DNA from: a virus
Direction: 5' to 3' (one strand)
DNA length: 64,000 nt
IMG/VR virus record: IMGVR_UViG_3300027749_000065
Coordinates: 1 to 64,000 of that record
Shown: piece by piece, positions 2,238 through 24,747 of the stretch
How the letters are laid out: each line of letters starts with the position of its first letter
How positions within the stretch are numbered: position 1 is the stretch's first letter
Made by a program: the position numbers and the translations under genes
Notes under the pieces: generated by a model
Database searches by the model: none
Seen by the model: the letters and a program-made list of their open reading frames with translations, nothing else
What the model was told of the DNA's origin: nothing

Positions 2238-2677
2238 TGGAGTGGAATGAGTATTTTTTAGGTATTGCAGAACAAGTAAAATTAAAATCAAAAGATATTA
2301 ACACACAGATAGGTGCAGTTATCGTTGGTAGTGATAAGGAGATACTTTCTACGGGTTATAATTCATTTCCAAGGGGTTTGGATGATACGAAAGAAGAACG
2401 TCAGGAAAGACCTGAAAAATACTTTTGGATGGTTCATGCCGAAGCAAATGCAATATATAATGCTGCGAGAGTTGGAACACCAATAAAAGACTCTTCAATG
2501 TATATTACATCAGGTGTACCATGTATGGATTGTGCAAGAGGGATTATAAACTCTGGTATTAAGAAAGTATATTGTAAACGAGTTTGTACTACTACAAATA
2601 AAGATATGTGGGAAGAACACCAAAAACGTAGTATTGATATGTTACATGAATGTGGTGTGGATGTTATATTTTATTAG
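2237..2677 (+). CDS. dCMP deaminase
   Basis: TGYN, HAEANAI and PCMDC zinc-binding motifs. Confidence 0.93.
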   Translation: MEWNEYFLGIAEQVKLKSKDINTQIGAVIVGSDKEILSTGYNSFPRGLDDTKEERQERPEKYFWMVHAEANAIYNAARVGTPIKDSSMYITSGVPCMDCARGIINSGIKKVYCKRVCTTTNKDMWEEHQKRSIDMLHECGVDVIFY

Positions 2678-3164
2678 GTAATTGATCGTAATAATTTTTT
2701 AATTGATGTTCATATTCAAAATATTTTATATTATCCGGTGGGTTATAATTAACCATTTCTCTACCTTTAATAACCAAACCATCATAACCTAAATCTAACA
2801 TTTCAGTTCTTATATCAGTTTGATTAAAAAATTCATTAGGTTTATATGAGATATTACGTTCTTTACACCAATTATTAATTACATTTTGAAGAAAGATTTC
2901 TGCCAAATTTGTATCATGAACAACTTTTGGTGTTTTTGGAATTGCGTTTAATACGAAATAAACTTTACCGTATTTGTTTGCCATGTCTTTATTACCTAAA
3001 AACGCAGTATATAAACCAGAACCAAATCTACCTCCACCATTGTTTTCTTTTCCAAGTTCTGTAACACCACGTAATGTCACGTTTTTACGTTTCCATTTGA
3101 GATAATCTTTATGAGATTGTTCGTATAATATTTTAAATTGATTTTCTGTTATAATTATTTTCAT
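2664..3164 (-). CDS. ADP-ribosyltransferase-fold (ART-PolyVal-like) protein with N-terminal KIIITExQ leader
   Basis: LRG...FGSGLY...ANKYG.VY and GYDG....E.V.YNP pattern. Confidence 0.5.
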   Translation of the reverse strand: MKIIITENQFKILYEQSHKDYLKWKRKNVTLRGVTELGKENNGGGRFGSGLYTAFLGNKDMANKYGKVYFVLNAIPKTPKVVHDTNLAEIFLQNVINNWCKERNISYKPNEFFNQTDIRTEMLDLGYDGLVIKGREMVNYNPPDNIKYFEYEHQLKNYYDQLPNKI

Positions 3165-4087
3165 AATAACGATTTAATAATTCTATTAATGTAGTTTGGT
3201 GGAGTTCTTTTTATGTTATTTTGATTGGTTACCGAACCTTTAATCCATTCGCTTAAATCACTAATTTCATTATAGTCAACATCAGTATCATCATCAATTA
3301 AATCAACGTATTTACTCCAAGTCTTATCATAACCTTCCTTTGTCATCATTTCTAAAAAATCAGCTGCCATTGGGTGTTTTTTTCTTATAAAATCAATAAC
3401 TTTTGGTGAAATGTGTTTATTTAAATTTTTTAATAATATTTCATTAATTTGTATATAATATTTATTGATTAATTTTGTTATTTTTAATTTTTCTAGTATG
3501 ATTATAAAATATTCTTTTTCATCTTTTCCGATGTATCTTTTCACATCATAAACTTCAGCAAGATGTTGTGGTGTTTTTCCAATTAATTTATTTGAATTAA
3601 CCGCTTCGGTTTTATCGGTAGTTATTTTTAATACTTTATCGTTTCCGATGTCGTATGCCATTCCAAACTCACCACCCTTACCTAATTTTCTATGTTTTAA
3701 TTCTGTGAATTTTTTAATTATTTTAGATAAACTTCTATTATCAATATTAAGTTTTGTTTCATCTAACTCTAAATTTTGTACATCAGTTTCAAAGTTTTCA
3801 AAAAAATTTCCAAAACCAATATCGAAATAACCTATATTACCATTCTTTTTAAAACCGATATTATTTAAATTAACAAAATCTTCAGAATTAATATGATAAT
3901 ATTTTAATTCATCGATTATCCCAATAAATTGATTAAAAACCCATAAAAGTTTTTTATCATCAATTTTAACATTAGGTTTATCATTATAAACATAATAATT
4001 AATCAAGATTTCGGATACATAATCAATATCATTACTTTCAGTTAAAATTAATTTTTTTAATTGTGATTCGTTTAATAAGATTTTCAT
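3161..4087 (-). CDS. Protein kinase-like protein with lobes in permuted order
   Basis: HINSEDF..NN and YFDIG precede LGKGGEFGMAY and VLKIT..E. Confidence 0.5.
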   Translation of the reverse strand: MKILLNESQLKKLILTESNDIDYVSEILINYYVYNDKPNVKIDDKKLLWVFNQFIGIIDELKYYHINSEDFVNLNNIGFKKNGNIGYFDIGFGNFFENFETDVQNLELDETKLNIDNRSLSKIIKKFTELKHRKLGKGGEFGMAYDIGNDKVLKITTDKTEAVNSNKLIGKTPQHLAEVYDVKRYIGKDEKEYFIIILEKLKITKLINKYYIQINEILLKNLNKHISPKVIDFIRKKHPMAADFLEMMTKEGYDKTWSKYVDLIDDDTDVDYNEISDLSEWIKGSVTNQNNIKRTPPNYINRIIKSLL

Positions 4088-4116
4088 ATTAATTAAAGTT
4101 ATTATATTAAAAAACC

Positions 4117-4890
4117 TTATTTATCATTTGATAATTTAGTATCTTTTATGAATTTAGTATGAGAATTTTTATAAGATTTTTGTGATTCATCTTCCACATC
4201 TTTTGTGTATTGCCAGTTCCAATATAAATTATCGTTTGGTTTGAAACCATAAAATCTATGTACTTCTTTTTGTAGATTATTTACATTTTCACCATTCCAA
4301 TTTTGACCAACACATATATAACCAGTTTCAATATCTTTTATTATATTAGTTTCTCCAAGTGTTGTATGTCTATTCTCCAACCAATTTAATCTTTCAATTA
4401 GATTTTGATAATACATATTAGTTTGTCCCCATCTTATTGAACTAAAAAAAATAACAGTATCAGATTCAAACAATTCTTTAGATATTTTCCATAACTCGTC
4501 AGATTTGTTATTGATATTCACCCAACATCTATGATGTCCTGTTGGGTTCTTATTTTTATCTTTAAGTTCCGCATCTTTTAATCCACAACTATTACCGTCT
4601 TTTCTTGATACATTACCTTCACAAGGTAATATTTTTAGGTCGGTAACATCAATTAAAACACAATCATCACCTAATTCTTCTTTAATATACATCGCTAATA
4701 ATTTTGACTTAGGTATATCAATATTAACTTCATCAAAATTATATCTATTTGAACAACTTAATAATAGAATTTTTTTCTTTGTTTTAAGAATATCTATTGT
4801 CTTTTTTATTGACTTCCAAGCATCTGATTGAACCATTTCCTCGGAAATCATTATTTGTCTTATTCTTTCTATATTTTCGTTTAAATTCAT
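4117..4890 (-). CDS. Flavodoxin-fold NAD(P)H-dependent FMN reductase / iron-sulfur flavoprotein-like protein
   Basis: LLLSCSNR, ILPCEG..CG..HRC Cys cluster, SDTVIFFSSIRWG, LIERL. Confidence 0.75.
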   Translation of the reverse strand: MNLNENIERIRQIMISEEMVQSDAWKSIKKTIDILKTKKKILLLSCSNRYNFDEVNIDIPKSKLLAMYIKEELGDDCVLIDVTDLKILPCEGNVSRKDGNSCGLKDAELKDKNKNPTGHHRCWVNINNKSDELWKISKELFESDTVIFFSSIRWGQTNMYYQNLIERLNWLENRHTTLGETNIIKDIETGYICVGQNWNGENVNNLQKEVHRFYGFKPNDNLYWNWQYTKDVEDESQKSYKNSHTKFIKDTKLSNDK

Positions 4891-4983
4891 ATTAATATAA
4901 ATATAATAAAAAAATAAATAAATTTTACCATATTTTACATGTCCAATATGAAATTTTGTTATATTTATAATAAAAGGTAAGTT

Positions 4984-5877
4984 ATGATAATTTATAAATC
5001 AACAAATAAAGTTAATGGTAAGATATATATTGGACAAACAATTAATAGTTTGGAATCAAGAATTAAAAATCATATCAAAGAAAGTAAAAAAGAAAATGTA
5101 ATAAGACCATTTTTAAAAGCAATAAAAAAATATGGTATTGAAAATTTTTCATTTGAAATAATTGATCATGCAAATAATTTAGACGAATTAAATGAAAAAG
5201 AAATAATTTGGATTAGTGAATTTAATTCAATTTTACCTAATGGTTATAACATAACTGGAGGTGGACAAGGTAAAAAATTAAAGACAACAGATGAATTTAA
5301 AAAAACAATATCAGAAGGATTAAAAAAATCAGAAAAATGGCAAAAAATATTACAAAGTGAAGAATATCAAAATAAAATAAAAAATAATTTTATTGCATTT
5401 AATAAGGGTAAAAAATTCACAAAAGAACATAAAGATAAAATTTGGGAAGGAAATAAAGAACGAATTTTAAAATATAATAAAAGTACCTCTAAAGAATGGA
5501 TTATTGTTGATGTAAATAACAATATAAAAAGAATAACAGGAAAAGAAGAGTATTTTAAAAATTTAGGGATGGATTCTGGTAATATGAGTAGAATGGCAAA
5601 TAAACTAAATAAAAATAAAGTAATTAAAAGATATAACGGATATTATTGTTTCATTAATAATGGGGAATCTGATGAGATAATATTAAATAATGTTATAGAA
5701 TTAGACAATATTTATAAAACAGAGTTTAATATTTATAATAAAATAACACAAGAGACTAAAATAATAAAAAAAGATGAAATATATTCTTTCTGTGTGAGAG
5801 AAAGTCATGATTATTCATCTTTTTTAAGAATGATTAAAGGTAAATTTAAAACATATAAAAATTGGAGTCTTAAATAA
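4984..5877 (+). CDS. GIY-YIG homing endonuclease (Seg-like)
   Basis: MIIYKSTNKVNGKIYIGQT, R..H, catalytic E, GYN.T.GG; lies antisense within a minus-strand cluster. Confidence 0.9.
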   Translation: MIIYKSTNKVNGKIYIGQTINSLESRIKNHIKESKKENVIRPFLKAIKKYGIENFSFEIIDHANNLDELNEKEIIWISEFNSILPNGYNITGGGQGKKLKTTDEFKKTISEGLKKSEKWQKILQSEEYQNKIKNNFIAFNKGKKFTKEHKDKIWEGNKERILKYNKSTSKEWIIVDVNNNIKRITGKEEYFKNLGMDSGNMSRMANKLNKNKVIKRYNGYYCFINNGESDEIILNNVIELDNIYKTEFNIYNKITQETKIIKKDEIYSFCVRESHDYSSFLRMIKGKFKTYKNWSLK

Positions 5878-5878
5878 A

Positions 5879-5920
5879 AAAAAATATCTTATAAAATTAT
5901 AATTTTATAAGATATTTTTT
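5879..5920. terminator. Perfect 42-bp palindrome, bidirectional terminator
   Basis: AAAAAATATCTTATAAAATTA|TAATTTTATAAGATATTTTTT between convergent genes. Confidence 0.8.
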
Positions 5921-5922
5921 AA

Positions 5923-6666
5923 CTACCAGGCTCTGCAACTCCAGTAGCGCGGGCGATCTCTTGGACCTGGATTATCACATTTCATTCTTGCTCTAAATGA
6001 TTTTCTTCTTTCTGGATTATTTTTCTTAATAACCATTCTTTTACCATGAGCTGATTTACCACCAAAACCAAAGTTTACTTTAACGACTTTACCTTTATCA
6101 TTTTTAACAAAAACTCTAAATTTTTTGATGTCTCCCTGCATGATTTTACCCAACTGAACTTTTCTACCTTGGTATTCGGCTTCATTCAATAATTCATCAG
6201 GAATAAAATTAGTGTTTTGAACTGACCCAAATTCATCTTCAAAGATGATATCATTATTTTCATCAAATTCATTTAAAGAATGTATTTCTTTTAAAATTAA
6301 ATTTGTAATGTCACTTATAATTTCTTCATTATAATGAGTTAATTTAGGGGTATTACCAGTACCACTTTTTGGGTGTGTTTTTTCTGCGTTTCTTTTTTGA
6401 TTTGTCATTCCTTTCTTTTCTTTTTTTGTATATGAACTAGCGGTTTTTGGGGTTTCTTTTGAAACTTTTTTGGATGGTCTACATTTTGGGTAACTTCCAT
6501 CTGCTGCTTTCTTTCTTCCACATGGTGGATGTTTTCCATTAACCTTTTTGCTAACATCTACCCACTTTTCTTTAAACCATCTATTAAGATCTTCTTTTAA
6601 AACCTCACCAGATTCTAAAGATTCTTGAATATATTTTAAATCTTCTTTATTTACTAATATTTTCAT
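5923..6666 (-). CDS. Two-domain phage protein (DUF5872-like plus DUF6321-like)
   Basis: LNRWFKEKWVD..PCGR..YPKCRP, then AEYQGRKV..VKVNFG..SFRAR..RYWSC. Confidence 0.6.
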   Translation of the reverse strand: MKILVNKEDLKYIQESLESGEVLKEDLNRWFKEKWVDVSKKVNGKHPPCGRKKAADGSYPKCRPSKKVSKETPKTASSYTKKEKKGMTNQKRNAEKTHPKSGTGNTPKLTHYNEEIISDITNLILKEIHSLNEFDENNDIIFEDEFGSVQNTNFIPDELLNEAEYQGRKVQLGKIMQGDIKKFRVFVKNDKGKVVKVNFGFGGKSAHGKRMVIKKNNPERRKSFRARMKCDNPGPRDRPRYWSCRAW

Positions 6667-6674
6667 TTTATATA

Positions 6675-6890
6675 TTATTTAACTGTTCTCCATCCACCAC
6701 CTTTGGATTTATATCTTTTAGATGCGGCACCATTACAATATGCACTTGGACAGACTTTGTATTTAGATCTTGCCCACGCTAAACAACTAGCCCATAATTT
6801 TGAATTTGTTGGTTTATGTTTTGCTTCATCAATTTCCATTTCTTCATTAAGGATTAATTTTAATTGTTCTTCTGTTATTATTATTTTCAT
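6675..6890 (-). CDS. Small basic phage protein with KIIITEEQL leader
   Basis: KPTNSKLW..KYKVCPSAY..YKSKGGGW. Confidence 0.65.
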   Translation of the reverse strand: MKIIITEEQLKLILNEEMEIDEAKHKPTNSKLWASCLAWARSKYKVCPSAYCNGAASKRYKSKGGGWRTVK

Positions 6891-6896
6891 AATTTA

Positions 6897-7442
6897 TTAA
6901 TTAATATATGCGTTTAGTTCGTATTTTTTACCCAAGTGAGTTACTTGTATTTGTAATGCTTTTCTTTGTTCTTTTCCGTTTTTGTAAAGGGTTATGGTAA
7001 ATCTATTTGTTTTACCATCTCTTGGTCTAGCAGGACCCAGTCCTATTTTGGTTGATGTTTCATCTTTATCATATTCATAACCTCTTGATTCTGCGTATTC
7101 TAATGCTGAATTTATTGCGGAGGTATAAGAATCATGGTATGTTTCATAATCAGATTTTGATTCATTTAAATTTTGTTGTTCAAAATAACCTTCCATAAAA
7201 TTTGCAACTTCTTCGATGTCATCTTTTGATGTTGTGATATGATCTGCTGCCCAAGCATGTTCACCAGTTATTAATTTATCAAAACCTGGATGATGTTTAA
7301 AATTTAATATTTTTTCAATATCATTTTTCATATTTATTAAATTAGAAAGAACCATATAAGTTCCATCATTTTTTTCTTCTTCCATTTGTTCAGAAAGAAT
7401 TCTTTTTAATTGTTCTTCTGTTATTTTAATTTTTGTTTTCAT
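6897..7442 (-). CDS. Hypothetical protein with KIKITEEQL leader
   Basis: Start moved to ATG 7442, 5 nt after a TATTTAT motif. Confidence 0.7.
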   Translation of the reverse strand: MKTKIKITEEQLKRILSEQMEEEKNDGTYMVLSNLINMKNDIEKILNFKHHPGFDKLITGEHAWAADHITTSKDDIEEVANFMEGYFEQQNLNESKSDYETYHDSYTSAINSALEYAESRGYEYDKDETSTKIGLGPARPRDGKTNRFTITLYKNGKEQRKALQIQVTHLGKKYELNAYIN

Positions 7443-7455
7443 AATATATAAATAC

Positions 7456-8826
7456 TTATTTTTCTGATACAATTTCAAATTTTATTTGATCTTTATAATA
7501 AATTTCTTCTGTATGTGTATGACCTTTAAATTCCATATAATATTCTCTTGGAATTAAGTAATTGGTATCTAAATAGAAGGAATTTTCATTGGTAACATCT
7601 AATTGTGTCCAATTGTAAACAATGATATCGGTATGTCCTTCTTTTACAAAAAGTCTATAATAAACTTCTTTAAATAATTGTGTTTTTGGTGTGTCTATTG
7701 ATCTAAATGAAACAACAACTTTTCTTATATCACCTTGTTTTATTTTATCGGATTGTTTTATTCCAAAATATTGTATTGAGTATCTTTGTAGTTCTGTTTG
7801 ATTACCTCCAACTGTAAAATTTGCGGTATATGGATTTGGTACAAATTTTTGTGTTACATCATTAATTAATATACCATCTATGCTTATTGATTTCCACTTA
7901 TCATAGAAGAATCTTCTACCATCACAAATTTGTCCTGAGAGACCCAAGGTGACTTTATAAATACCTTTCCTAACCTTTGTTGTGGTTAATCCTGTAAGTG
8001 TTGAAATTGGGGTCTTTGATGTATCTAATATGTCAACAGTAGGAAGGTAATCTAAATCATAGAAATTAGTTCCTTTTGTAACATATAAATATAAATTTTG
8101 TGGTGTTCTTTCTATGAATAATTCTCTATCATCATCTATTTTATCATCAAAAATTGTTTCCACAAAAGGTTCAAAAAATGTTTGTGTGTATTTAGTAAAA
8201 AAGGCAACTGATTGTTCAAGGGAATTTGTTATACTTTGATATGGGATATCGAAAGCTAAACCCAATCCATAATTGGTAGAACCTCCGGTTAAAATACTAT
8301 TAATGTAGGATGTGATATCTGACTTAATATTTTCATTACCATTATCAAAATGTATTTTGGTTATTGTATTTGCAGTTAATTCATAAATACCTGATTTTGT
8401 CCAACCACTTAATGTTGTTTTATTATACCAGTTAGATGGTTTTGCGTCATATGTATGATTGTCTATCGATATATCTGAAGTGTATTCATAATCATACCCT
8501 GTTCCTTCATCCCAATATTCATCTATTCTAAAAACAATTAAATCAAAAGAACTAGTTCTTTGTTTTCCAGTACCCTTAATTTCATTTCGCATTGTTTCAT
8601 CACCAAATATCGTATTGGTCATGTTAAGATAATGTTTCGTATTATTATCTAATATAAAATCACCATTATTTATTTTGGTTTTTAATTCATTTAAATCTAC
8701 TTTAAAAATAAATTTTGAAAATCCATATCCGTAATATAATTCAGTTGCCGGAAATTTAGCGGTATTTACATACGAATTTTTAATTATTGTATTGTTTTTT
8801 TCAAAATATGAACGATAATATGACAT
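7456..8826 (-). CDS. Putative virion structural protein
   Basis: 456-aa beta-rich ORF with late motif upstream; W.EG.GYDY and [ST]GxT motifs. Confidence 0.55.
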   Translation of the reverse strand: MSYYRSYFEKNNTIIKNSYVNTAKFPATELYYGYGFSKFIFKVDLNELKTKINNGDFILDNNTKHYLNMTNTIFGDETMRNEIKGTGKQRTSSFDLIVFRIDEYWDEGTGYDYEYTSDISIDNHTYDAKPSNWYNKTTLSGWTKSGIYELTANTITKIHFDNGNENIKSDITSYINSILTGGSTNYGLGLAFDIPYQSITNSLEQSVAFFTKYTQTFFEPFVETIFDDKIDDDRELFIERTPQNLYLYVTKGTNFYDLDYLPTVDILDTSKTPISTLTGLTTTKVRKGIYKVTLGLSGQICDGRRFFYDKWKSISIDGILINDVTQKFVPNPYTANFTVGGNQTELQRYSIQYFGIKQSDKIKQGDIRKVVVSFRSIDTPKTQLFKEVYYRLFVKEGHTDIIVYNWTQLDVTNENSFYLDTNYLIPREYYMEFKGHTHTEEIYYKDQIKFEIVSEK

Positions 8827-8850
8827 CTTTTTTTATTATAAATATCTCAA

Positions 8851-10374
8851 TTAGTTGATTCTAATTGATTTATTTAAAAGATCATTTTCAATACTATTTA
8901 ATAATTCGTTTAACTTTGTGTAATTGGGGTCGCCCTGTACTAACGGTCCGACCAAATTATGTTGATGACTTAATAATAAGTCAATTATATGGTATAAGAT
9001 TTTTAATAAATTTTCACCTCTTACAAAAGAATAAGTTTTAGGTTGAATTTTTGTTATGTAGTCTTCTTGTGTAAAATCATATTTATTTAAATCATTAAAA
9101 TCAATTACCTTATCCGTTTCATTTGTATCGGTGGATAAGAAATAAATTTTATCAGACACTATTGATCCAAATGTTTGTTCTGGTGAATTATCATTTATTT
9201 TACCATATTCAAACATGGTTTCTTTTATTTTGGGTTTTGGTATTGCTCTTTCTTGTGACCATACCATACCAGAACCGGGTCCAACTTTACAAACTTCAAT
9301 ATTTGATATGAATATGGTTCTATTTTTGTTTTCAACATCTGTTGTTAATCTTTTAATAAATTCAGAAGATGGTCTAAAATAGAAAGGATGTATATCCTCG
9401 TTAGGATAAATAGAGTACGATGGGTTATTTAGTTTTAAATCATTTATTGTATATTTTAAACCTAAGTCATGTAAACTATTGATAGTGTGTCTAGTTTCAA
9501 TATAAGCGTTATTTAAAGAATTGACAGGTATTGAAAAAGTTGTTGAACCAGTTGTATGAATAAATTTGGTGAATCCTGTATTAATTGCGGTAAATTGATT
9601 AAAAACAGATGAGTTATATGAATCCCCATTTACTTTGCCTCCATCAACTTTATAAATATAAAAATTAACATTTGATGGGCTTGTTAAATTATCCAAATCA
9701 TATTCAATAATATATTTTATTGTTGCAGAATCATATGTTACTTCAGTTTTAATATCTGCGATTAAATCCATTTTTTTTGGGAACTTTTTTAATGTGATCT
9801 TCGCCAACTTGTTACTCATTAAAGGTTGTTGTAACATAGTTTTTCTATCTTTTACACTAGCAGCATCTTTTGATAATAACTTACCCCCTCTTAATATAAT
9901 ACCACCATCTGTAAAAATTAAATCAGAACCAGATTTACCGTATATTGCATAATCTTTTTCATCTGCAAATGAGTTTTTTGATCTATCATTTGTATATGTA
10001 TTATTTTTTGAATTTATAATATCTGCAGAATGTTTTACGTGAATACCATATGTGGTATTTTCAACTTGTTGTGAATATGTTTGAGTATTATAATCGTATC
10101 TAGTTGTAAAAGGTCCGGCAATATATTCTTGGTTAACAGTTTCTTTATCTGGATTATAATTGATAATTTTAACCGCTTGTTTTTCTAATGGAATGAAATT
10201 AATATTTGTTGGTAGAAATGGGCAACATACAAATGGATCTTTATCTCCCCATTCTTCATATTCAACCGATTTTTCTTTTTCACCAATGTAGTCATTATAA
10301 CGAACCGCACGTATTCTTCCAATACCTTTTGGGTCTTTATTATTTATACATATTCCAATATCTATTATTTTCAT
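8851..10374 (-). CDS. Baseplate central spike (gp5/gpV-like)
   Basis: N-terminal OB-fold GICINNKDPKGIGRIR; C-terminal VRGE.L and HQH (HxH) apex motif. Confidence 0.7.
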   Translation of the reverse strand: MKIIDIGICINNKDPKGIGRIRAVRYNDYIGEKEKSVEYEEWGDKDPFVCCPFLPTNINFIPLEKQAVKIINYNPDKETVNQEYIAGPFTTRYDYNTQTYSQQVENTTYGIHVKHSADIINSKNNTYTNDRSKNSFADEKDYAIYGKSGSDLIFTDGGIILRGGKLLSKDAASVKDRKTMLQQPLMSNKLAKITLKKFPKKMDLIADIKTEVTYDSATIKYIIEYDLDNLTSPSNVNFYIYKVDGGKVNGDSYNSSVFNQFTAINTGFTKFIHTTGSTTFSIPVNSLNNAYIETRHTINSLHDLGLKYTINDLKLNNPSYSIYPNEDIHPFYFRPSSEFIKRLTTDVENKNRTIFISNIEVCKVGPGSGMVWSQERAIPKPKIKETMFEYGKINDNSPEQTFGSIVSDKIYFLSTDTNETDKVIDFNDLNKYDFTQEDYITKIQPKTYSFVRGENLLKILYHIIDLLLSHQHNLVGPLVQGDPNYTKLNELLNSIENDLLNKSIRIN

Positions 10375-10574
10375 TATTTTATAATTCTTTTCCCTATTTC
10401 ATCATTAACTTTATCATATAACTCTTCAACACCATCAAGATGTCTTGTTAAGTCAATAATCAATTCTTTTGTTTTATTGAACTCTTCATATAGTTCTTTT
10501 TGTGCAATAAATAAATCATTATTTGATTTATCTTCTATATTTTCAACTATTTCAATTAATTTTTTCTTATCCAT
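10374..10574 (-). CDS. Small coiled-coil hypothetical protein
   Basis: 66-aa ORF coupled to neighbours. Confidence 0.6.
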   Translation of the reverse strand: MDKKKLIEIVENIEDKSNNDLFIAQKELYEEFNKTKELIIDLTRHLDGVEELYDKVNDEIGKRIIK

Positions 10575-10575
10575 A

Positions 10576-12471
10576 TTATAAAGATTTTCCTGCCAATGTC
10601 ATCATACCCGGTAATATTGTTCCAGGTCCTAATGGTGTTGCAACAATAATTGGTAATGAATTTGTTGAACTAACAAAACCGTTTGCATCTTTTTCTTCTG
10701 CATGTCCATCCATAATTGATTTAATCATTGTCTGAAGATTATTACTTTCACCAAATATTGGGCCCATATTAATACCAGCAGAAGACATTTTTTCGGATAT
10801 ATTCATACTAGCTCTTTCGGGACTATAACCGGATTGTTTGTCAGCGAACATTAATAACAAGTTAGGTATTTTTATTGGTCCATTTGCGGTCAATGCTCCA
10901 TTTATACCTGCAATTACAGCATTAAATAAATCGTAACAATTATCTAACCCATCTTGAAGTACTTTAGTAAGAAACGCAATTAATGCTGTTATTATTATGT
11001 AATACTTTTTTAATTTACCTTTAAGTATTTTTTTTGCCGTCTTTTGTAAAAATTTTAAAAGTTCTACTTTAATTAACTTCCAAAATTCCCTCATAAATAA
11101 CCAAAAAATGTCTTTAATAATTCCATAAAATAATTTCCATAATTTTTTCATTAGTATTTTTAAATCAATTGATGCTAAATTATTTTTTATTATTTTATAT
11201 ACTAAAACAATTGGGAAAAATATTTTGGGTGATAAAATTGCAGTTATCATTGCTTTAGGTACATTTAAAATATAAAGATTTTGTAAATTAATGTTGAAAT
11301 TGATTGTTGGTAAAGATGATTCTGATTGTGAAGATGCATCATTAGCCACTTTACTAAAAGTACTATCAATAACAGAACCAATTGGTTTTTTATCAATGAA
11401 ATATACGAAATCCTCAATCATCTTACCATTTACAGGAACTTCAAAATTATTACAATCTTTGAATTTTAAAACTCTTCTTTTTTTTGTATCTTCATCATCT
11501 ATATCAATACCCTCAACATCATCAAAATTAAAATATGATTGGATGTCTTCATCATTTTCATTAAACAATTTTGTTGGGTTATGATTTGTAAAATGTTTTG
11601 GATTTAATGGTGGTCCACAGACAGATAATAATTTCTTAATAATTCTTTGAACTTCATTCATCGCATCTAAAAAAAAGGATGGTTCAGTTCCGTCTCCTTG
11701 TATTGTCATTAACATTGCAGTTTTAACAATATCTCGTAATTCTGGTAATTCAATAGTTGAAAAATAATCTGAAAAAAATTCGCCAACTTTTGGTTGTGTA
11801 TTTTCTTGTGTTAAACCTGAAATCACAAAATGTTGATTAGGTGCACTCCAAGTTGATGTAAATAATGTTTTATTATTATTTGTATTAAACTGATATGGTG
11901 AACCATTAAAAGAGTTATAAAAATTTCTATTTACTTTCTGTTTGCCTTTATCAGGTGATGATGCTTCATACATTATTTTACCAGACGCAGATGAAGGTTC
12001 TACTGTAAACATTTTTAATAGATCAAACTCATTTGGGGTTAACGTTAGTTGATCTATATTAATTGATGTTAGTGTACCACAAATCCCATCTCCAGCAAAA
12101 AAAACTTTATTTACATTATCTGAAACAATTTGTCTAGTTGAACTTAAAGTTTTTTTTGCTGCAGTATGTGCACTATCTTTTAAAACCCCTAACGCTGATT
12201 TATCTTTTCCTGCATTTTTATTTTGACCTAAAAACCCGTTAGAAATATCAAGTAAATCACCAAAAATATCTTTATTGGAATTTGATGTTTTTCTTTTTTG
12301 TTTATCTAAATAAGCAGATAATTTTTTACCTAAAATAGCATCAGTTGATGGTAAATCTTTGAGGTATTTTTCATCAATACTATCTGTAAATGCTTTTGGG
12401 TCATCATTTATTTTTTTGATGGCCTCAAGTTTTGATTGTATTTTGTTTTTAGTACTTTTAACGTCGCTCAT
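10576..12471 (-). CDS. Hypothetical (probably virion) protein
   Basis: 631-aa ORF in the operon with the spike gene. Confidence 0.6.
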   Translation of the reverse strand: MSDVKSTKNKIQSKLEAIKKINDDPKAFTDSIDEKYLKDLPSTDAILGKKLSAYLDKQKRKTSNSNKDIFGDLLDISNGFLGQNKNAGKDKSALGVLKDSAHTAAKKTLSSTRQIVSDNVNKVFFAGDGICGTLTSINIDQLTLTPNEFDLLKMFTVEPSSASGKIMYEASSPDKGKQKVNRNFYNSFNGSPYQFNTNNNKTLFTSTWSAPNQHFVISGLTQENTQPKVGEFFSDYFSTIELPELRDIVKTAMLMTIQGDGTEPSFFLDAMNEVQRIIKKLLSVCGPPLNPKHFTNHNPTKLFNENDEDIQSYFNFDDVEGIDIDDEDTKKRRVLKFKDCNNFEVPVNGKMIEDFVYFIDKKPIGSVIDSTFSKVANDASSQSESSLPTINFNINLQNLYILNVPKAMITAILSPKIFFPIVLVYKIIKNNLASIDLKILMKKLWKLFYGIIKDIFWLFMREFWKLIKVELLKFLQKTAKKILKGKLKKYYIIITALIAFLTKVLQDGLDNCYDLFNAVIAGINGALTANGPIKIPNLLLMFADKQSGYSPERASMNISEKMSSAGINMGPIFGESNNLQTMIKSIMDGHAEEKDANGFVSSTNSLPIIVATPLGPGTILPGMMTLAGKSL

Positions 12472-12851: not shown

Positions 12852-12871
12852 ATCAATAAATAGATGTTTTT

Positions 12872-17226: not shown

Positions 17227-17526
17227 TTATGATCCAGTACTACCAAATCCACCACTACCTCTATCACTATCAGATAATGTATCTGTTTCAATAAATTTAA
17301 TTTGTGGATAAGGTAAAATAATGATTTGAGCACCTCTATCACCAACTTTGTAATCAGCATCAAATGCATCATGTACCTTTTTAAAGGTAGCTTGGATTTC
17401 ACCTCTATACCCACAATTATGTAAACATAAATTATTTCCAAAGAAATTATGATTTTTTTCTACTGTTAAATGATAAATTGGTTTACTATTAGTTTTTTCA
17501 ATTTTTTTTATTTTGGTATATTTCAT
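17227..17526 (-). CDS. dut: Split intein C-fragment (37 aa) plus dUTPase C-terminal half
   Basis: MKYTKIKKIEK..IYHLTVEKNHNFFGNNLCLHN|CGYRGEI...DRGAQ...RGSGGFGSTG (dUTPase motifs 3-5). Confidence 0.92.
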   Translation of the reverse strand: MKYTKIKKIEKTNSKPIYHLTVEKNHNFFGNNLCLHNCGYRGEIQATFKKVHDAFDADYKVGDRGAQIIILPYPQIKFIETDTLSDSDRGSGGFGSTGS

Positions 17527-18346
17527 TTACTTTATTTTTAATCTTATTTAATGTTATTTTTTTTGTTTTATAATCATTTTCCCATATTATAATGACTTCA
17601 TACCCATTATCGGTTAATAATTTAACCCGTTGATTATCATTTTCCCATATTTCTTTAGCGGTTTTTCTAATTTGTTTATGGTAATAATCGGGATTAAAAA
17701 ATAATGGATTACAGTGCCAATAATCACCATAACATTCAATTAATATTTTATTATTTATTAAAATATCAGGAAATGTTTTTCTTATTTTTAAATCTATAAA
17801 TCCATTTGAATCAACTGTTAAATTTTTAATATTTAATTTTAAAAATTCAAATATTTCTTTTTCAAATTTAGATGTTCTTTTACCAACAAATTTAGACTTA
17901 CACTCATTTGAACAATAACCTTCATCCTCCCAATTTGAACTAATATATACTTTATCACAAGAATTACATTTTCTTTTTATTCTACCTGATAAGTGTTTAC
18001 ATTCATTTGAACAAAATTTAGAAACTTTTCGATAATTCCAAGTTTCATATTCTTTACCACAATGATCACATGAAAATTTATTTTTTTTTAATTTTATAGT
18101 ATTATTATTTTTCTGTTGATTCTTACTTGCACATGATATTGAGCAAAATCTTCTTTTAGTGTAATTTTGAACCTCAACTTCTTTATCACATTCTTCACAT
18201 TTAATAATTTTTCTTTTTCTTAATGGATTTAATATTGTTGACATTGAATTGATTCTACATTCATTTGAACAATATTTTGAATGATCTCTATTTGTTAAAA
18301 ATTCTTTACTACATTGTAAGCATATTTTTTCTTGTTTTTCACACAT
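17498..18346 (-). CDS. Free-standing homing endonuclease (Vsr/DUF559-like) with repeated Cys zinc-ribbon motifs
   Basis: Four CxxC..FCS.xC repeats; PDILI..LIECYGDYWH; IIWE. Confidence 0.8.
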   Translation of the reverse strand: MCEKQEKICLQCSKEFLTNRDHSKYCSNECRINSMSTILNPLRKRKIIKCEECDKEVEVQNYTKRRFCSISCASKNQQKNNNTIKLKKNKFSCDHCGKEYETWNYRKVSKFCSNECKHLSGRIKRKCNSCDKVYISSNWEDEGYCSNECKSKFVGKRTSKFEKEIFEFLKLNIKNLTVDSNGFIDLKIRKTFPDILINNKILIECYGDYWHCNPLFFNPDYYHKQIRKTAKEIWENDNQRVKLLTDNGYEVIIIWENDYKTKKITLNKIKNKVNEIYQNKKN

Positions 18347-18385: not shown

Positions 18386-18402
18386 AAAAGAATATGATAT
18401 AT

Positions 18403-19110
18403 TTACATAAATCTTAAGATTTCGTCATTTTCTGTTAAATCAAAAACTTTTTTCCATCCTGATTTAGTAAAAACTTCTTTTTCATGTGGTAATTCTACAA
18501 TATCTCCATCTTCTGTGGTGATTCTCAATAAATCTTTATTTTCTACTATCCACATATCTGTAACCATATCAGTTTCTATTGAATTTAATTCTTCGTTATA
18601 TGATAAAATTGGTATTGATATATTTTCAAATAAATCTTCAACATTAATATCCCCATTAATAGTTTTTATTTTTGTTCCAGATGGAACACAATCTACAACC
18701 CCGACTGAATTTGTTAATAGTAAATCATACTTTCTAACAGATGATCTTGGGAACACTAATCCAACATAACCTATAGGTATTTCTAATGCAATTCCAAAAC
18801 CGTATGTTATATCTACATTAGTTTTGTTTATTATTTCAGTTATTGTTAAATCCATTCCCGCATCCCCATCTTTTGAATATGATGGTATAACTGCATTTTC
18901 TTTTAGTTTTTTAATTTTAATCTGTAATGATTTGAGATTAGATGTCATACTTTCTTGTACATCGGTATTTAATTTTGTTAATAGATCATTTAAATCTGTA
19001 ATAAAATTTAAATCAATCTCTTCCTCATCTTCAGATTTTATTTGATTCTCAAAACCTTTTAGTTGTTCAATGTAATCTTTAATCTCTTCTTTTTCCATGT
19101 TCTTTTTCAT
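18403..19110 (-). CDS. dut: dUTPase N-terminal half plus split intein N-fragment (95 aa)
   Basis: GDAGMDL, PRSS, NSVGVVD|CVPSGTKIKT...GWKKVFDLTENDEIL*. Confidence 0.92.
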   Translation of the reverse strand: MKKNMEKEEIKDYIEQLKGFENQIKSEDEEEIDLNFITDLNDLLTKLNTDVQESMTSNLKSLQIKIKKLKENAVIPSYSKDGDAGMDLTITEIINKTNVDITYGFGIALEIPIGYVGLVFPRSSVRKYDLLLTNSVGVVDCVPSGTKIKTINGDINVEDLFENISIPILSYNEELNSIETDMVTDMWIVENKDLLRITTEDGDIVELPHEKEVFTKSGWKKVFDLTENDEILRFM

Positions 19111-19654
19111 CTATTATTGCCAATTCGATTCCTTGTTTAACAATGTTAGTTAATGCCTCGGAATAATATTTAGCTTGTTTATCAGTTTCGTCTTTATCCA
19201 AATTTACAATTGCTTGGAACTCAACTGGTATCAATTTAACCCCATTATTAATTGCATAATAAGCGGATCTTTCACCTGTTCTTAATGAAACAATTTCTTC
19301 ATTAAATTCATACATTTTACCCAAGTTTTTTCTGTGCCATTCACTTGGGTTTGGTTTAAATAAAAAAACCTTACCTATTTGTGAAAGAAATACACACTTA
19401 ATAATGGATTCCTTATTTTGTCTAATTGTTTCAGGTAATAAATCATTAATTTGGATAGCGTATTTACATGCTTTAATCAAATGATTTAATAAACCACCCG
19501 GAAAACAACCATACATCTCCAATGTAGGAGATGCGGGTGAAAGATAAAATCCATCACCTAAAAAATCTAATAATTCAGGGGTAAAGATATTATACTTATT
19601 ATTTGTTTCAATAAACTTCTGTTTATTTGACTCTAATTGTTGTGTTGTTAACAT
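19079..19654 (-). CDS. HD-domain-like protein (degenerate)
   Basis: SPAS..GCFPGGLLNH; HD motif replaced in FLSQIGK. Confidence 0.6.
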   Translation of the reverse strand: MLTTQQLESNKQKFIETNNKYNIFTPELLDFLGDGFYLSPASPTLEMYGCFPGGLLNHLIKACKYAIQINDLLPETIRQNKESIIKCVFLSQIGKVFLFKPNPSEWHRKNLGKMYEFNEEIVSLRTGERSAYYAINNGVKLIPVEFQAIVNLDKDETDKQAKYYSEALTNIVKQGIELAIIDEKEHGKRRD

Positions 19655-19732
19655 AATTTTTTTATTTTATATCGCGTTCTTTTTTTTTTGAGAAATATAT
19701 TTCTCATAAAGTTCAGTTTCTGTTACCATAAA

Positions 19733-19966
19733 TTAGTCTTTATAAAATTCGGGGGTGTTATTTTTATCAATAACACATTCAATTGGTAATTTAACAATTG
19801 ATAAGGTTTCACTAGATCTGATATCGCCTTCTCTGTATTTTGCTGCGACTAACATTGCTTCCTCGGCAGAATCTGCTTCTAAAGCATACTTTAATTTTTG
19901 AAGACGGTTATTACCGTTTCTGTCTACTTGTTCGGTTTCATAACCGATGGTAACTAAATAATGCAT
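19733..19966 (-). CDS. DUF4494-like protein
   Basis: YLVTIGYE..NG..KLKYALEADSAEEA pattern. Confidence 0.45.
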   Translation of the reverse strand: MHYLVTIGYETEQVDRNGNNRLQKLKYALEADSAEEAMLVAAKYREGDIRSSETLSIVKLPIECVIDKNNTPEFYKD

Positions 19967-19986
19967 ATTTTATAATTTTAATAAAT

Positions 19987-20018
19987 CAAATATAAACAAT
20001 ATTTTTTGATTTACCAAA
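19987..20018 (-). promoter_or_regulatory. Bacteroidota-type sigma70 promoter
   Basis: Minus strand TTTG (20018-20015), 20 nt, TATATTTG (19994-19987). Confidence 0.75.
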
Positions 20019-21245: not shown

Positions 21246-21295
21246 AAAATTTGTTTATACGTCAATGATAATATATATAATCCAAAAAGAAAAGG

Positions 21296-21985
21296 TTATT
21301 TAGCCTTGTTAACTTTAGTAATTTTTCCTGAAAATACTGAATCACCAACTTTAACAACTAAATTTTCATTTATTGATGTTGTTTTTTGTGCAGTTAATAA
21401 TTGATTTAATTTCTCATCCATTATTTTACGAATGGTATTTTCAATAATAGGCGTTAACGCACTTACAATCTCATTAACATCTTGTTTCGTATGAATTACT
21501 TGTGTTTGTTGTGGTCTTTGTGGTGTTTTCGATTTATTTGGTCCAACACCTTCTTGTTCCATTAATTTTCTTGCTTTATTAACAAAATTAATATCAAGTG
21601 AATCTGCCAATGATATTTGTTGTGGTTGTTGTATAGGGTGTTCTATCATTAGTTTTTTTATGTTTTCAGGTAATTTAGTATTTTGTATTCTATTAACATC
21701 TAAAACATTTGAACTAACAGGTTTTGTTGGTGTTGATCTTGATTCTTCCATCATACCCATCATGTCGTACCCTCCAATTTGTTGTGGCATCATTCTTTGT
21801 TGTGGTATCATTGGTTGATGCATCATTTGATTTGCACCTAATTCTTCTGGTGAAGATTTTAAAATGTTTTCATTAACATTACCTGTTTCATAGTCACCAT
21901 TATCCACTTTATTCATTATTTTTTTCGCCTGTACTAATCTCATCATTAAATCATTTTCTGAGATTACTCCATTTCCTTGTTGCAT
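21296..21985 (-). CDS. Hypothetical protein (Q/P/M-rich)
   Basis: 229-aa ORF. Confidence 0.7.
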   Translation of the reverse strand: MQQGNGVISENDLMMRLVQAKKIMNKVDNGDYETGNVNENILKSSPEELGANQMMHQPMIPQQRMMPQQIGGYDMMGMMEESRSTPTKPVSSNVLDVNRIQNTKLPENIKKLMIEHPIQQPQQISLADSLDINFVNKARKLMEQEGVGPNKSKTPQRPQQTQVIHTKQDVNEIVSALTPIIENTIRKIMDEKLNQLLTAQKTTSINENLVVKVGDSVFSGKITKVNKAK

Positions 21986-22022
21986 ATTTAATATATTTTA
22001 TTAATTATAATTATAATTATTA

Positions 22023-22835
22023 TTATAATAACATTAAAGTTTTAATTCTTTTAATGTTTTCATTTAATTGAGATGTTTGTTTATTTTTTATCTCATCTTC
22101 TGTCTCTTTTTTTAATCTATTTCTAGTTCCTTCACCTGGATTTGTGTTTTTATTTAAAGATGATTGTGATTTTTTCCAATCACTTAATTTTTTGTTATAT
22201 AAATCATTAAATATTTTTTCTTCTTCTGGGTTTTCTTTAGGTTTTTCTTCTGGTTTTGGTTGAGGTAATTCATTAGATGGTTTTATTTCTTTATTTGGTT
22301 CAACAGGAGTTGGTTCAGGTTTTTCGTCTGACTTTGGTTGAGGTAATAGTGGTTCAATTTTTTTAATTGGTTCTTCTGTGGGTTTTGGCTCTTTTTTAAC
22401 TGGTGTCGTTGTTTCCCAATTTGATTTAACGTATGTAACTCTCATCCCACCATATCTTGGGGATTCGTCTCCTTCTTTATAGTTTGGTTTTTTTTGATTG
22501 AATTGTGTGTTTTTATTTACTTCAATCCTACTCATTCTACTAACCATAAATGTTCTCCAACCATGTTCATTAAAACCTTTTTTTGAAACAGATGGTGGTT
22601 GTACATATGCTCTAATAACTAAGTTACCTTTACTATTAATACCCATAGCAACTGCTTCTGCATTAATTCTTCTTCCTTGTTTTACACTTTTTTCTTTTGG
22701 TTTTCTTGGACCCGTATAAAAGAAGGTAATAGGATTCCTATTAACAATTGCATCAACAATTGGTTTATTTTGAGTTGTTTTAAGAATGTTTTGTTCTTCA
22801 AGTATTTTGAAGAATAATTTTTTAGTTATTTCCAT
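22023..22835 (-). CDS. WYL-domain protein with Pro/Glu/Lys linker
   Basis: IVDAI..ITFFY..R.AEAVAMG..LVIRAY..GWRTFMVSRM. Confidence 0.7.
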   Translation of the reverse strand: MEITKKLFFKILEEQNILKTTQNKPIVDAIVNRNPITFFYTGPRKPKEKSVKQGRRINAEAVAMGINSKGNLVIRAYVQPPSVSKKGFNEHGWRTFMVSRMSRIEVNKNTQFNQKKPNYKEGDESPRYGGMRVTYVKSNWETTTPVKKEPKPTEEPIKKIEPLLPQPKSDEKPEPTPVEPNKEIKPSNELPQPKPEEKPKENPEEEKIFNDLYNKKLSDWKKSQSSLNKNTNPGEGTRNRLKKETEDEIKNKQTSQLNENIKRIKTLMLL

Positions 22836-22836
22836 A

Positions 22837-23502
22837 TTAAAAATCTGGATATGTATGTTTAGTTCCGTATTTATTTATTGCCAATTCTGTATTTCTTGTT
22901 AATATATCAGTTATTGAACCTACACTACCATTATTATCTCCTTTACCAAATTCATCACCATCAGAAATAGCGTCTTTATTTTGTGCAGAATATTGATTAT
23001 TTAAACCATATCTATTAAATGAAATAGTTGCGTTTCTATTTAAAATATCAGTTTGAGAACCAATCGATCCATTTTTTTCACCTTTACCAAATTCATCACC
23101 ATCAGAAATGGCATCTTTATTTTGTGCAGAATATTGATTATTTAAACCATATCTATTAAATGAAATAGTTGAATTTCTATTTAAAATATCAGTTTGAGAT
23201 CCGATAGAACCGTTATTTTCACCTTTACCAAATTCATCACCATCGGAAATAGCGTCTCTATTTTGTACAGAATATTCATTATTTAAACCATATCTATTAA
23301 ATGAAATAGTCGCATTTCTATTTAAAATATCAGTTTGAGAACCAATACTACCATTATTATCTCCTTTACCAAATTCATCACCATCAGAAATGGCGTCTTT
23401 ATTTTGTGCGGAATATTCATTAGTTGCACTATATCTGTTAATTACTAATTCTTGTGGTCTTAATTGATTTGCAATAATTTCTAATTGTGTTAATTTTGCC
23501 AT
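22837..23502 (-). CDS. Protein made of four 47-aa tandem repeats
   Basis: Unit NRYGLNNxYSAQNKDAISDGDEFGKGxNNGSIGSQTDILNRNATISF. Confidence 0.8.
   Translation of the reverse strand: MAKLTQLEIIANQLRPQELVINRYSATNEYSAQNKDAISDGDEFGKGDNNGSIGSQTDILNRNATISFNRYGLNNEYSVQNRDAISDGDEFGKGENNGSIGSQTDILNRNSTISFNRYGLNNQYSAQNKDAISDGDEFGKGEKNGSIGSQTDILNRNATISFNRYGLNNQYSAQNKDAISDGDEFGKGDNNGSVGSITDILTRNTELAINKYGTKHTYPDF
22876..23439 (-). repeat. 4 x 141-bp coding tandem repeat
   Basis: CCTTTACCAAATTCATCACCATC recurs at 141-bp spacing. Confidence 0.9.
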
Positions 23503-23503
23503 A

Positions 23504-24001
23504 TTAATATGTTATTAATTTTTTTATTTTTTCTATTTCTTCAAAAAGTCCCAATGACGTTATTGGTGTAATAGAAGATTTATGTGAATTACTTTTAATT
23601 AAATTAGTTGGTACGGTAAATCCAAATTTTTTTGTGTGTTTTTTTAGATATGAATTTTTTCTTTCTCCAGTTATTGCAGCCATTTCATCCGCATCTTTTC
23701 TTCCTTCTTTTCTATTGCTAATTAAATCACGTTCACCTTGTAAATGTTTTTTTGACCAATTATCCATTAATTGACCACCGTAAAGATTATATCTAGATAT
23801 ATCTTTAATTTTATCAATTCCTTGTAAATCATGAATAATTCTTTTTAATTGTCCATAAGTTACTTTTTTATCATTTAATATATTTTGTGCACGTTGTACT
23901 CCATGAGTATTCTTATCTTGTAAACCAGTTATTGTGTGGTTAATTAGATTAAGAATATCCTGTGGGACATCAAAAACTCTATCTTTTAATTCTTTATTCA
24001 T
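23504..24001 (-). CDS. Hypothetical head-associated phage protein
   Basis: GVQRA..LKRI..YNLYGG; C-terminal LFEEIEKIKKLI. Confidence 0.6.
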   Translation of the reverse strand: MNKELKDRVFDVPQDILNLINHTITGLQDKNTHGVQRAQNILNDKKVTYGQLKRIIHDLQGIDKIKDISRYNLYGGQLMDNWSKKHLQGERDLISNRKEGRKDADEMAAITGERKNSYLKKHTKKFGFTVPTNLIKSNSHKSSITPITSLGLFEEIEKIKKLITY

Positions 24002-24747
24002 TATTTTAAATGTTTCAAAATATCCTTTAATGATAAATTGTGACTATCCAAACTATTTTTTAATGATTTTATTTGTTTTAACACAATTGGATTAATTTTT
24101 TTTTCTTCATCGATTTCATTGTTAAGAATGTCATTTGATATATTTTTTTTAGATAAAATACTTTCAAGATATTCTTCCATAAATTTTTTAGGGTTTTCAA
24201 CTAATCTAACCTTATCATCTGGTAATTTTTGATCATATCCCATTTGACCTAATCTTTCGATTGCTTCTTCGTGTGTTAACCCTAATTCTTTTGTAAAATG
24301 TCTATATGCTTCTTTAAATCCTTCATCATCACCTAAAGTATCTTCATATCCTAATGATTTACTCATATCTGCTTCTGACATTCCATAATATTTCATGGAT
24401 ACCGCACCGTATGCACTTGATGAACCCATTTGTCCGGTTGACATTTTAACAACTTCATCACTTGTTTTATTATCAGTAACACCTTTTGTATTAAAATTTG
24501 TTGGTTTTTTACCTCTTGCAATGTTTAATTCATCATCAACAATTTCATCCATTTCTTTTTTTGTTTTTTTAACTTTTTTTGGTAAATGTTTAAAATCTGT
24601 TTTATCTGAAAATTCATGAGCCATTTTGTCCCATTTTTTTCTTTCTTTCGGTGAAGATGATTTATCTCCCGCTTTTGCATAAAAAAATTTTTGCTGTGCT
24701 TTTGATTCGAATTTTTCTTCTATTATTTGTTTTATAAAATTATTCAT
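24001..24747 (-). CDS. Hypothetical phage protein
   Basis: FESKAQQKFFYA..W..EF..KTDF..LP motif; late motif upstream. Confidence 0.65.
   Translation of the reverse strand: MNNFIKQIIEEKFESKAQQKFFYAKAGDKSSSPKERKKWDKMAHEFSDKTDFKHLPKKVKKTKKEMDEIVDDELNIARGKKPTNFNTKGVTDNKTSDEVVKMSTGQMGSSSAYGAVSMKYYGMSEADMSKSLGYEDTLGDDEGFKEAYRHFTKELGLTHEEAIERLGQMGYDQKLPDDKVRLVENPKKFMEEYLESILSKKNISNDILNNEIDEEKKINPIVLKQIKSLKNSLDSHNLSLKDILKHLK

Follow-up and report, generated by a model that had tools for sequence, protein, structure and literature searches.

In the first 64 kb of a 98,810-base viral contig with 27% G+C (positions 1 to 64,000 of IMG/VR record IMGVR_UViG_3300027749_000065, hereafter the window) two short peptide motifs, A and B, recur at the ends of proteins that are otherwise unrelated to one another. 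On balance we favour the reading that both motifs are a capsid-address tag of the kind known from bacteriophage T4 in a new form, namely a portable amphipathic terminal helix that would address its carrier to the inside of the prohead. In the form towards which we lean, the tag would be a helix of 15-20 residues with protease-type sites at its boundary, usable at either end of a protein and shared with the scaffold and the protease of the head. Motif A, M-K-h-h-h-[TN]-E-x-[QD]-[LF]-K-x-[IL], opens five neighbouring genes, all on the minus strand, at 2664-3164, 3161-4087, 5923-6666, 6675-6890 and 6897-7442. Motif B, a basic-hydrophobic amphipathic helix at the extreme terminus, stands at the N-terminus of the product of 4117-4890 and at the C-termini of the products of 22023-22835 and 23504-24001, three further minus-strand genes. 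All nine peptides quoted in an earlier reading of this DNA (the original prediction) were found where it had placed them.

The contig encodes a contractile tail (sheath, tube and baseplate wedge), a replication set, several homing endonucleases and inteins, and family searches found no capsid, portal, protease or terminase gene in its 98,810 bases. Pfam and PHROGs searches assigned a family to few of the window proteins, most having none. With the protein encoded at 7456-8826 as anchor we obtained 235 relatives in IMG/VR, from which 80 loci were kept. Two related records measure 311 kb (93% complete) and 288 kb (92% complete), and the contig therefore represents about one third of the genome of a giant far-T4-type phage of roughly 310 kb; the closest relative is a 162-kb fragment with 89% identity at the anchor protein.

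The tags of the window can for the most part be recovered from one another. In a leave-one-out test, in which a model built from four A tags had to find the fifth against a background of 4,200 shuffled proteins and the untagged real proteins, four of the five window tags outscored every shuffled and every untagged real protein, the left-out tag of 6675-6890 scoring 18.0 bits. The strict motif-A pattern is found at four N-termini and one internal place (50374-55149, residue 1482) among the 84 proteins of the contig. A profile built from 17 tags picked by coordinates and applied at a cut-off of at least 8 bits gave distinct segments of which 38 were N-terminal, 4 internal and 1 C-terminal; two of the internal segments are start miscalls and the other two stand at two-domain junctions in fused proteins. 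The first seed model, run with a lenient threshold, had 82 domain matches at N-termini, 90 inside proteins and 15 at C-termini, of which the top scores alone are meaningful. In the closest relative at least seven more A-tagged genes form a second cluster at another place in the genome.

Motif B is likewise confined to protein ends. The pattern given in the original prediction matched four of the 84 contig proteins, each at a terminus, and a tighter pattern searched in the contig and the 80 related loci together (1,914 proteins) gave 101 matches, 80 of them C-terminal, 19 N-terminal and 2 internal, the last two being likely artefacts of gene calling. Three of the four sites first proposed, those at 4890, 22023 and 23504, stood; the peptide at 61513 is a conserved N-terminal helix that neither the motif-A nor the motif-B model finds, and we do not count it among the tags. 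A 134-amino acid (aa) ParB/Srx-like protein of the relatives, with a D-G-H-H-R motif, also opens with a clear motif B (L022:1366-1770, L065:1253-1657 and L071:1313-1717) and adds one more body without kinship to the others.

The connection of these peptides with the head becomes visible in the relatives. There the tag cluster is followed by a dCMP deaminase gene, beyond which lies, on the opposite strand, a head module in T4 order consisting of Portal_T4, two small proteins, a Peptidase_S77 protease, an acidic scaffold-position protein of about 400 aa and a Gp23 capsid protein; the S77 match is present in all three related records searched. The gp23-type gene lies 1-3 kb past the dCMP deaminase gene, a place just beyond the left end of the window, and the earlier statement that the tagged genes are near the capsid gene holds for the relatives and not for the window or its contig, which have no capsid gene. 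A motif-B string closes the scaffold-position protein, and a close variant of this string closes the protease. A profile made solely from the 12 C-terminal residues of 64 scaffold-position proteins ranked the protease tails first and then B-tagged cargo, represented by the families of 22023-22835 and 4117-4890, a paralogous family of the relatives and the ParB-like 134-aa protein. At 4 bits or more this profile matched 28 terminal and 5 internal segments among 1,803 unique non-scaffold proteins, against means of 1.0 and 1.9 in shuffled proteomes. Scaffolds and maturation proteases with common C-terminal capsid-binding tails are known from lambda (C/Nu3), the herpesviruses (protease/scaffold) and HK97 (protease), and such a common tail is the usual mark of a contact that draws both proteins into the procapsid. 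The scaffold-position protein and the protease of this clade resemble these pairs in ending in one motif, and differ from them in that unrelated proteins of non-structural appearance carry the motif as well, and that it occurs at N-termini too.

The scaffold and protease tails also speak against other destinations for the tagged proteins. In the window the tag cluster comes after three large genes (7456-12471), one of which has an N-terminal motif that, read from the sequence, looks spike-like, and a tag that loads cargo into the tail or baseplate, as the N-terminal packing signals of extracellular contractile injection systems do, would suit such a neighbourhood. Pfam and PHROGs gave no family for these three genes, and a PDB sequence search with 8851-10374 and 7456-8826 gave no match. 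We attach a very small probability to a tail destination, given that motif B sits on the scaffold-position protein and the head protease, that the tag cluster of the relatives adjoins the head module and that the phage tail tube is filled by the tape measure protein. A second possible destination is the inner membrane, where T4-type proheads start and to which the helices might target proteins in the manner of the terminal amphipathic helices of MinD and FtsA. The basic-hydrophobic amphipathic nature of motif B at the extreme terminus would be in keeping with this, as would the assembly of T4 proheads on the membrane described in PMC5694885. We nevertheless consider it quite improbable that membrane or assembly-site targeting is the function of the tags, as the motif is carried by a scaffold core and a protease that finish inside the shell, the tags are rich in glutamate and a membrane anchor has no role for the [IL]-x-E boundaries described next.

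A site of the head-protease type, [IL]-x-E, is found within 15 residues behind the motif-A core in all 22 A-tagged proteins of the contig and the two whole relatives, a set that comprises 17 families and whose members are hence not independent, compared with 103 of 587 untagged N-termini (18%) and 527 of 2,935 internal windows. Ahead of the C-terminal B tags there is L-N-E, L-K-E, L-Q-E or L-F-E. Homologues of the ADP-ribosyltransferase (ART)-like protein of 2664-3164 behave similarly: 107 of the 120 listed have a leader of 12-60 residues, and in 91 of these 107 an [IL]-x-E stands just ahead of the domain, whatever the sequence of the leader. In the capsid protein of the clade I58-N59-E60 is invariant and stands before A-A, much like the L-T-E that the T4 gp23 record shows at 63-65 before A; the propeptide of gp23 is 65 residues long (PMC5694885).

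The tagged genes lie in transcription units of late type. The 8-mer TATTTAT[AT] is enriched 17-28-fold upstream of genes and precedes the sheath, tube, tape-measure-position and baseplate genes; among the head genes of the relatives it stands ahead of those for the portal, the scaffold-position protein and the protease. Another motif, TAnnTTTG, is placed upstream of the gp32 gene and of certain other genes that are non-structural. Counted over the contig and both whole relatives, 31 of 34 tagged genes belong to co-directional units that start with TATTTAT[AT], none belongs to a TAnnTTTG-headed unit and for three no motif was found, as compared with 25/84, 58/203 and 59/393 genes preceded by TATTTAT[AT] overall in these three genomes. 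In the window the units that hold tag genes are headed by TATTTAT[AT] at 8837-8844, at 7447-7454, which abuts the ATG of 6897-7442, and at 4896-4903, which is the late-type promoter motif of 4117-4890 itself, and a further late-type promoter-like motif at 24763-24770, on the minus strand, heads the unit running from 24747 to 21296. The original prediction that the tagged genes follow late motifs is borne out by these counts, and no replication or nucleotide-metabolism protein encoded by the contig carries the tag, so that it is not equally common in early and replication proteins.

Two observations on the late-type motif may be added. It often lies 11-13 nucleotides (nt) ahead of the ATG with no Shine-Dalgarno-like sequence between (4896-4903, 7447-7454, 12855-12862, 24788-24795 and others), on account of which many late mRNAs may be leaderless or nearly so. 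In addition, the homing-endonuclease genes at 187-1902, 4984-5877, 17498-18346, 46521-47426 and contig 97063-97977 each have a late-type motif of their own 22-26 nt upstream; the gene at 4984-5877, GIY-YIG-like by motif, interrupts the tag-gene cluster at mid-length and runs on the opposite strand.

The top direct DNA repeats between 2600 and 7600 are the tag-coding stretches, 44 nt at 73-80% identity, with a 54-nt direct repeat of 85% identity between 6834-6887 and 7380-7433. This raises the question as to whether the similarity is kept at the level of DNA or mRNA, either as short homologies for the shuffling of cassettes in a hyperplastic region or as favoured starts for leaderless late mRNAs, and both the late-type motifs 11-13 nt from several of the ATGs and the shuffling and fusion of bodies among relatives could be taken in this sense. 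The repeats cover the tag codons only and end within a few bases of the ATG, with the promoters outside, which speaks against a recombination module. In a genome of 27% G+C, moreover, codon choice makes DNA identity follow peptide identity, motif B is found at C-termini and motif A at internal domain junctions, and many late genes have quite different starts. A DNA- or mRNA-level origin of the similarity is in our judgement decidedly improbable, and we return to the capsid-address tag.

Portability is seen first in the variety of bodies to which the tags are attached: taken together, the contig and both whole relatives hold 32 tagged proteins, which make up 22 families unrelated by BLASTP apart from the tag, in line with the earlier claim that the attached domains are mutually unrelated. 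The gene at 2664-3164 encodes a 166-aa protein in which a motif-A tag (residues 1-15, ending L-Y-E15) precedes a body of predicted ART fold. Its AlphaFold2 model has a mean predicted local distance difference test score (pLDDT) of 90.8, with a helix at residues 7-28, and the first-ranked structural match is an unannotated chain of the cyanophage A4 pre-ejectosome (Z 6.5), followed by the catalytic domain of diphtheria toxin (Z 6.1), with MbcT (Z 5.0) and tankyrases (Z about 4.7) further down. The matches listed have Z scores of 4.1-6.5 and Foldseek E values of 0.027 or more and, apart from the unannotated phage chain, are all ART-type enzymes; a term search of the text of the cyanophage A4 structure paper (PMC12002296) found no mention of an ART-type domain there. 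Residues R32, Y52 and E136 are invariant, the body has no Pfam match, and a family profile searched against PDB sequences gave nothing significant (best E 0.047). As the structural scores are modest we describe the body as having, by its model, an ART fold, stopping short of membership in the ART family; it is at this fold level that the original ART-like assignment is supported.

The adjacent gene, 3161-4087, encodes a 308-aa protein with a motif-A tag (residues 1-17, ending L-T-E17) and a protein-kinase-like body. Its model has a mean pLDDT of 86.7, whereas tag residues 1-20 have values of 45-49, so that the tag is predicted not to pack against the body. The top Foldseek matches are exclusively protein kinases, at weak scores (E 0.016-0.1, TM score about 0.2), which together with a lead from Atlas lend the kinase-like label weak fold support; G139, G142 and K154 are invariant. 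The gene at 4117-4890 encodes a 257-aa protein with an N-terminal motif-B tag (residues 1-17, with L-N-E5 and I-S-E17) and an FMN-reductase-like body; the flavoprotein label of the original prediction is no more than a lead, from FMN_red clusters in Atlas and a Flavodoxin_5 match at E 0.034. A WYL assignment, also made earlier, corresponds to a weak match (E 0.019) across 16 residues.

The gene at 5923-6666 encodes a 247-aa basic protein with a weak motif-A start (ending I-Q-E15), for which the DUF5872 part of the original DUF5872/6321 assignment was recovered (E 1.8e-12); DUF6321 was absent from the Pfam results and the C-terminal half matches only phrog_7595. Some of its orthologues have a second A motif at the junction between the two domains. 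In the 311-kb relative the DUF5872 protein (L008:12405-12818, the same as G002 273481-273894) stops just after an internal copy of motif A, with a lipoprotein-like gene in place of its second domain and motif A left as a C-terminal relic. The cluster is completed by a 71-aa basic Cys-containing protein (6675-6890, tag ending L-N-E16) and a 181-aa protein (6897-7442, tag ending L-S-E18) whose true start is the ATG at 7442.

Of the two C-terminally tagged proteins, that of 22023-22835 (270 aa) consists of a conserved N-terminal domain, a variable P/E/K-rich linker and motif B at 257-270 after L-N-E259, and in an alignment with two orthologues the tag is kept even where one of them has lost the linker. 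Related loci could not be found for it by a single-protein search, and an alignment query returned just the known contigs or their close kin. The 165-aa basic protein of 23504-24001 ends in a motif-B-like tag (residues 152-165, with L-F-E154) that is conserved in both whole relatives. A 229-aa protein encoded on the minus strand at 21296-21985 has an N-terminus (residues 7-25) with the look of an A/B hybrid, conserved in both relatives and picked up by neither model, and is a candidate member only.

Portability is seen secondly in the exchange of tags on one and the same body. The ART-like and kinase-like genes, adjacent and overlapping in the window, are fused into one protein in some metagenomic phages, and fused homologues carry a single front tag in the orders tag-ART-kinase and tag-NUDIX-kinase (P0123, P0125). 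Homologues of both bodies in other metagenomic phages have different leaders; the kinase-like body has 41 homologues, with other leaders or in fused forms such as that of P0123. The ART-like body has 422, and among the 120 of these that are listed the leader helix differs by lineage, with 11 of A type, 38 of an I-I-x-I-I-[KN]-E-E type, 2 of B type and 56 classed as other helices, the remainder comprising 4 almost leaderless proteins, 7 with long extensions and 2 without the domain anchor used to place the leader. In four of six inspected loci (from 16 loci of other lineages) the neighbours of the ART-like gene carry the same leader type as the ART-like gene itself. Orthologues of 6897-7442 in the 80 loci have A-type, B-type or other leader helices, and it is mainly for this reason that we treat motifs A and B, on sequence grounds, as putative dialects of one device. 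In three loci of other lineages (L112, L114 and L117) several different small proteins begin with K-Q-R-L-F-E-[VI]-M-x-[KR]-[VL], a peptide that resembles the protease tail R-M-K-x-L-M-x-x-L-D of the clade and may be a further tag dialect.

The diversity of these leaders, with 56 of the 120 listed ART-like homologues bearing some other helix, can also be turned towards an explanation in which the terminal helices have no role in head entry and are either cleavable or regulatory pro-peptides or generic helices serving oligomerisation, enzyme latency or chaperone recognition. An amphipathic N-terminal helix that begins with a T/S-E-x-Q/D capping box is a frequent feature, found for example inside the domain of the pterin dehydratase that the relatives encode, and several bodies are enzyme-like and could need latency. 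Such an explanation is in our view unlikely, since it leaves unaccounted for the motif at the ends of the scaffold-position protein and the prohead protease, the confinement of tagged genes to late units and the boundaries of head-protease type.

A number of points weigh against a capsid address. For motif A the link to the head is indirect: it depends on A and B replacing each other on orthologous bodies, on the [IL]-x-E sites of the tag and on the analogy with T4 Alt. The tag of 5923-6666 failed the leave-one-out test, scoring 1.6 bits, a value equalled or exceeded by 82 of the 4,200 shuffles; orthologues of this protein in the relatives match motif A better than the window copy does. A loose motif-A pattern also matches 38 internal places across the 80 loci, nearly all of them one conserved helix of a single enzyme family of about 190 aa (window orthologue 19079-19654), a helix that the profile skips at 8 bits or more, and the A-like start of the pterin dehydratase belongs to its own Pfam domain. 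A-like strings are, to judge by these sequences, a common helix opening, and the case for motif A appears to rest on clustering and position rather than on the string by itself. In the scaffold-position protein [IL]-x-E occurs 2.33 times per 100 aa, against a mean of 1.66 (sd 0.86) in other proteins; this is within the spread and lends no support to a T4-like degradation of the scaffold. The contig that contains the window has no head module and the protease is inferred from relatives, in a clade without a cultured relative: the nearest cultured phages, Rhodothermus RM378, Flavobacterium 'immuto' and Microcystis Mel-JY01, have less than 45% identity in the capsid and sheath proteins. The tags within one genome are not identical, which makes a single receptor an assumption, and some of the bodies look metabolic rather than host-directed (FMN-reductase-like, and pterin dehydratase in the relatives). 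A complex prediction for the capsid protein of the relatives (alignment of 44) with residues 1-40 of 4117-4890 gave a score of 0.00, was run without controls and counts neither way.

The closest known system is the capsid-targeting sequence (CTS) of T4. The CTS corresponds to the first 10 residues of IPIII (PMC9026906), T4 propeptides are 10-20 residues long (PMC9026906, PMC5694885), and the CTS of IPI-III and Alt is removed by the prohead protease gp21 (Mullaney and Black 1996, as cited in PMC9026906 and PMC5694885). Cuts at ITE-6 and LTE-619 are given for Alt, the packaged ADP-ribosyltransferase of T4 (PMC5694885), and both Alt and gp21 are described as processed at the C-terminus too, which for gp21 is thought rather than settled (PMC9026906). 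In the T4 records Alt starts M-E-L-I-T-E and gp21 ends in I-T-E followed by a tail with an amphipathic helix. The two systems have in common short terminal peptides on unrelated proteins, one of them of ART fold, a boundary of [IL]-x-E type, late genes, a T4-type head gene set including an S77 protease (here in the relatives), and a cargo set that varies among relatives; to these may be added the C-terminal propeptides of Alt and, as thought, of gp21. Sequence likeness, in a comparison made with Alt, is limited to the I-T-E of the N-terminus of Alt (M-E-L-I-T-E), found at residues 5-7 in motif A. At 15-20 residues the present tag is longer than that of T4, and a conserved helix follows its first h-x-E on the side of the body. 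Its putative B dialect occurs at both N- and C-termini and recurs in the tails of scaffold and protease, and the tag is attached to at least 22 body families in three genomes, metabolic-looking enzymes included.

Encapsulin cargo-loading peptides offer a second parallel, being short, placed at either terminus and able to send unrelated enzymes into a shell of HK97 fold, which is the putative destination here also. Encapsulins differ in having no scaffold, protease or DNA and a different motif. In phiKZ, 201phi2-1 and SPN3US, head and ejection proteins have long N-terminal propeptides that are cut after Glu by gp21-related proteases (PMC5694885, PMC9026906), and these giant phages resemble the present clade, as far as these sources describe them, in their many internal proteins, Glu-ending cleavage motifs and several sites per propeptide. 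Their propeptides are described as mostly longer than 100 residues and without a single shared short motif, and they belong to a separate lineage. A full-text literature search for CTS-like tags in jumbo and metagenomic phages returned T4, phiKZ and SPN3US only and no description of the present motif. The principle is thus known from T4 and extended propeptides from phiKZ-like phages, and what appears to be new is the form of this motif in uncultured far-T4 giant phages.

Several further features of the contig were observed. The gene at 22837-23502, flanked by the two genes with C-terminal tags and part of their late unit, encodes a 221-aa protein with four tandem repeats of about 48 residues and a D-G-D-E-F-G-K-G core. 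The 948-aa helicase of 36175-39021 has PHROG 'terminase' matches that come solely through an inserted intein-like segment (approximately residues 141-540), and the 'terminase' match of a DnaB-like protein (contig 66038-68434) is likewise confined to an intein-like insert, so that the contig has no real terminase match. TAnnTTTG lies upstream of 1929, 19966, 35221 and 62614 and ribosome-binding sites are absent, a combination typical of Bacteroidota hosts, from which the host may be a low-G+C member of the Bacteroidota.

If the tags are indeed capsid addresses, we infer a sequence of events as follows. Tagged proteins would be made late in infection alongside the head proteins, and the tag would dock each of them to the assembling core or the inner surface of the shell through the contact that the scaffold-position protein and the prohead protease would make with their tails. 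After assembly a gp21-family protease would cut at the [IL]-x-E between tag and body, freeing the body inside the head, and cargo such as the ART-fold, kinase-like, FMN-reductase-like and small basic Cys-containing proteins would then travel with the DNA and perhaps enter the host. The portable address tag proposed in the original prediction is supported in part, through its portability, its terminal position on unrelated bodies, its late units and its [IL]-x-E bounds; that the payload consists of effectors is uncertain. More tentatively, and with some doubt, we put forward a wider possibility, that uncultured giant far-T4-type lake phages possess a modular helix that serves as prohead address whether it opens or closes a protein, copied from the scaffold and protease tails, cut at flanking [IL]-x-E sites and present in several lineage dialects across many uncultured phage groups, and that with it they pre-pack a fast-changing arsenal of at least 12 enzymes (ART-fold, kinase-like, ParB-nuclease-like, NUDIX and FMN-reductase-like among them) for delivery with the DNA.

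Were this wider possibility true, the tag would let the injected proteome of a phage be read straight off its genome. A head address would in itself allow the set of encapsidated or injected proteins of a large uncultured clade, and likewise of other clades with their own dialects, to be listed from sequence, and would draw attention to new enzymes of anti-defence and host takeover. That the scaffold and protease tails have the motif too suggests that the tag may have arisen by copying the contact used by the internal proteins of the head. Its use at either terminus would, if true, widen the T4 rule, and the tag would provide a ready handle for packaging foreign proteins in the capsids of non-model phages.

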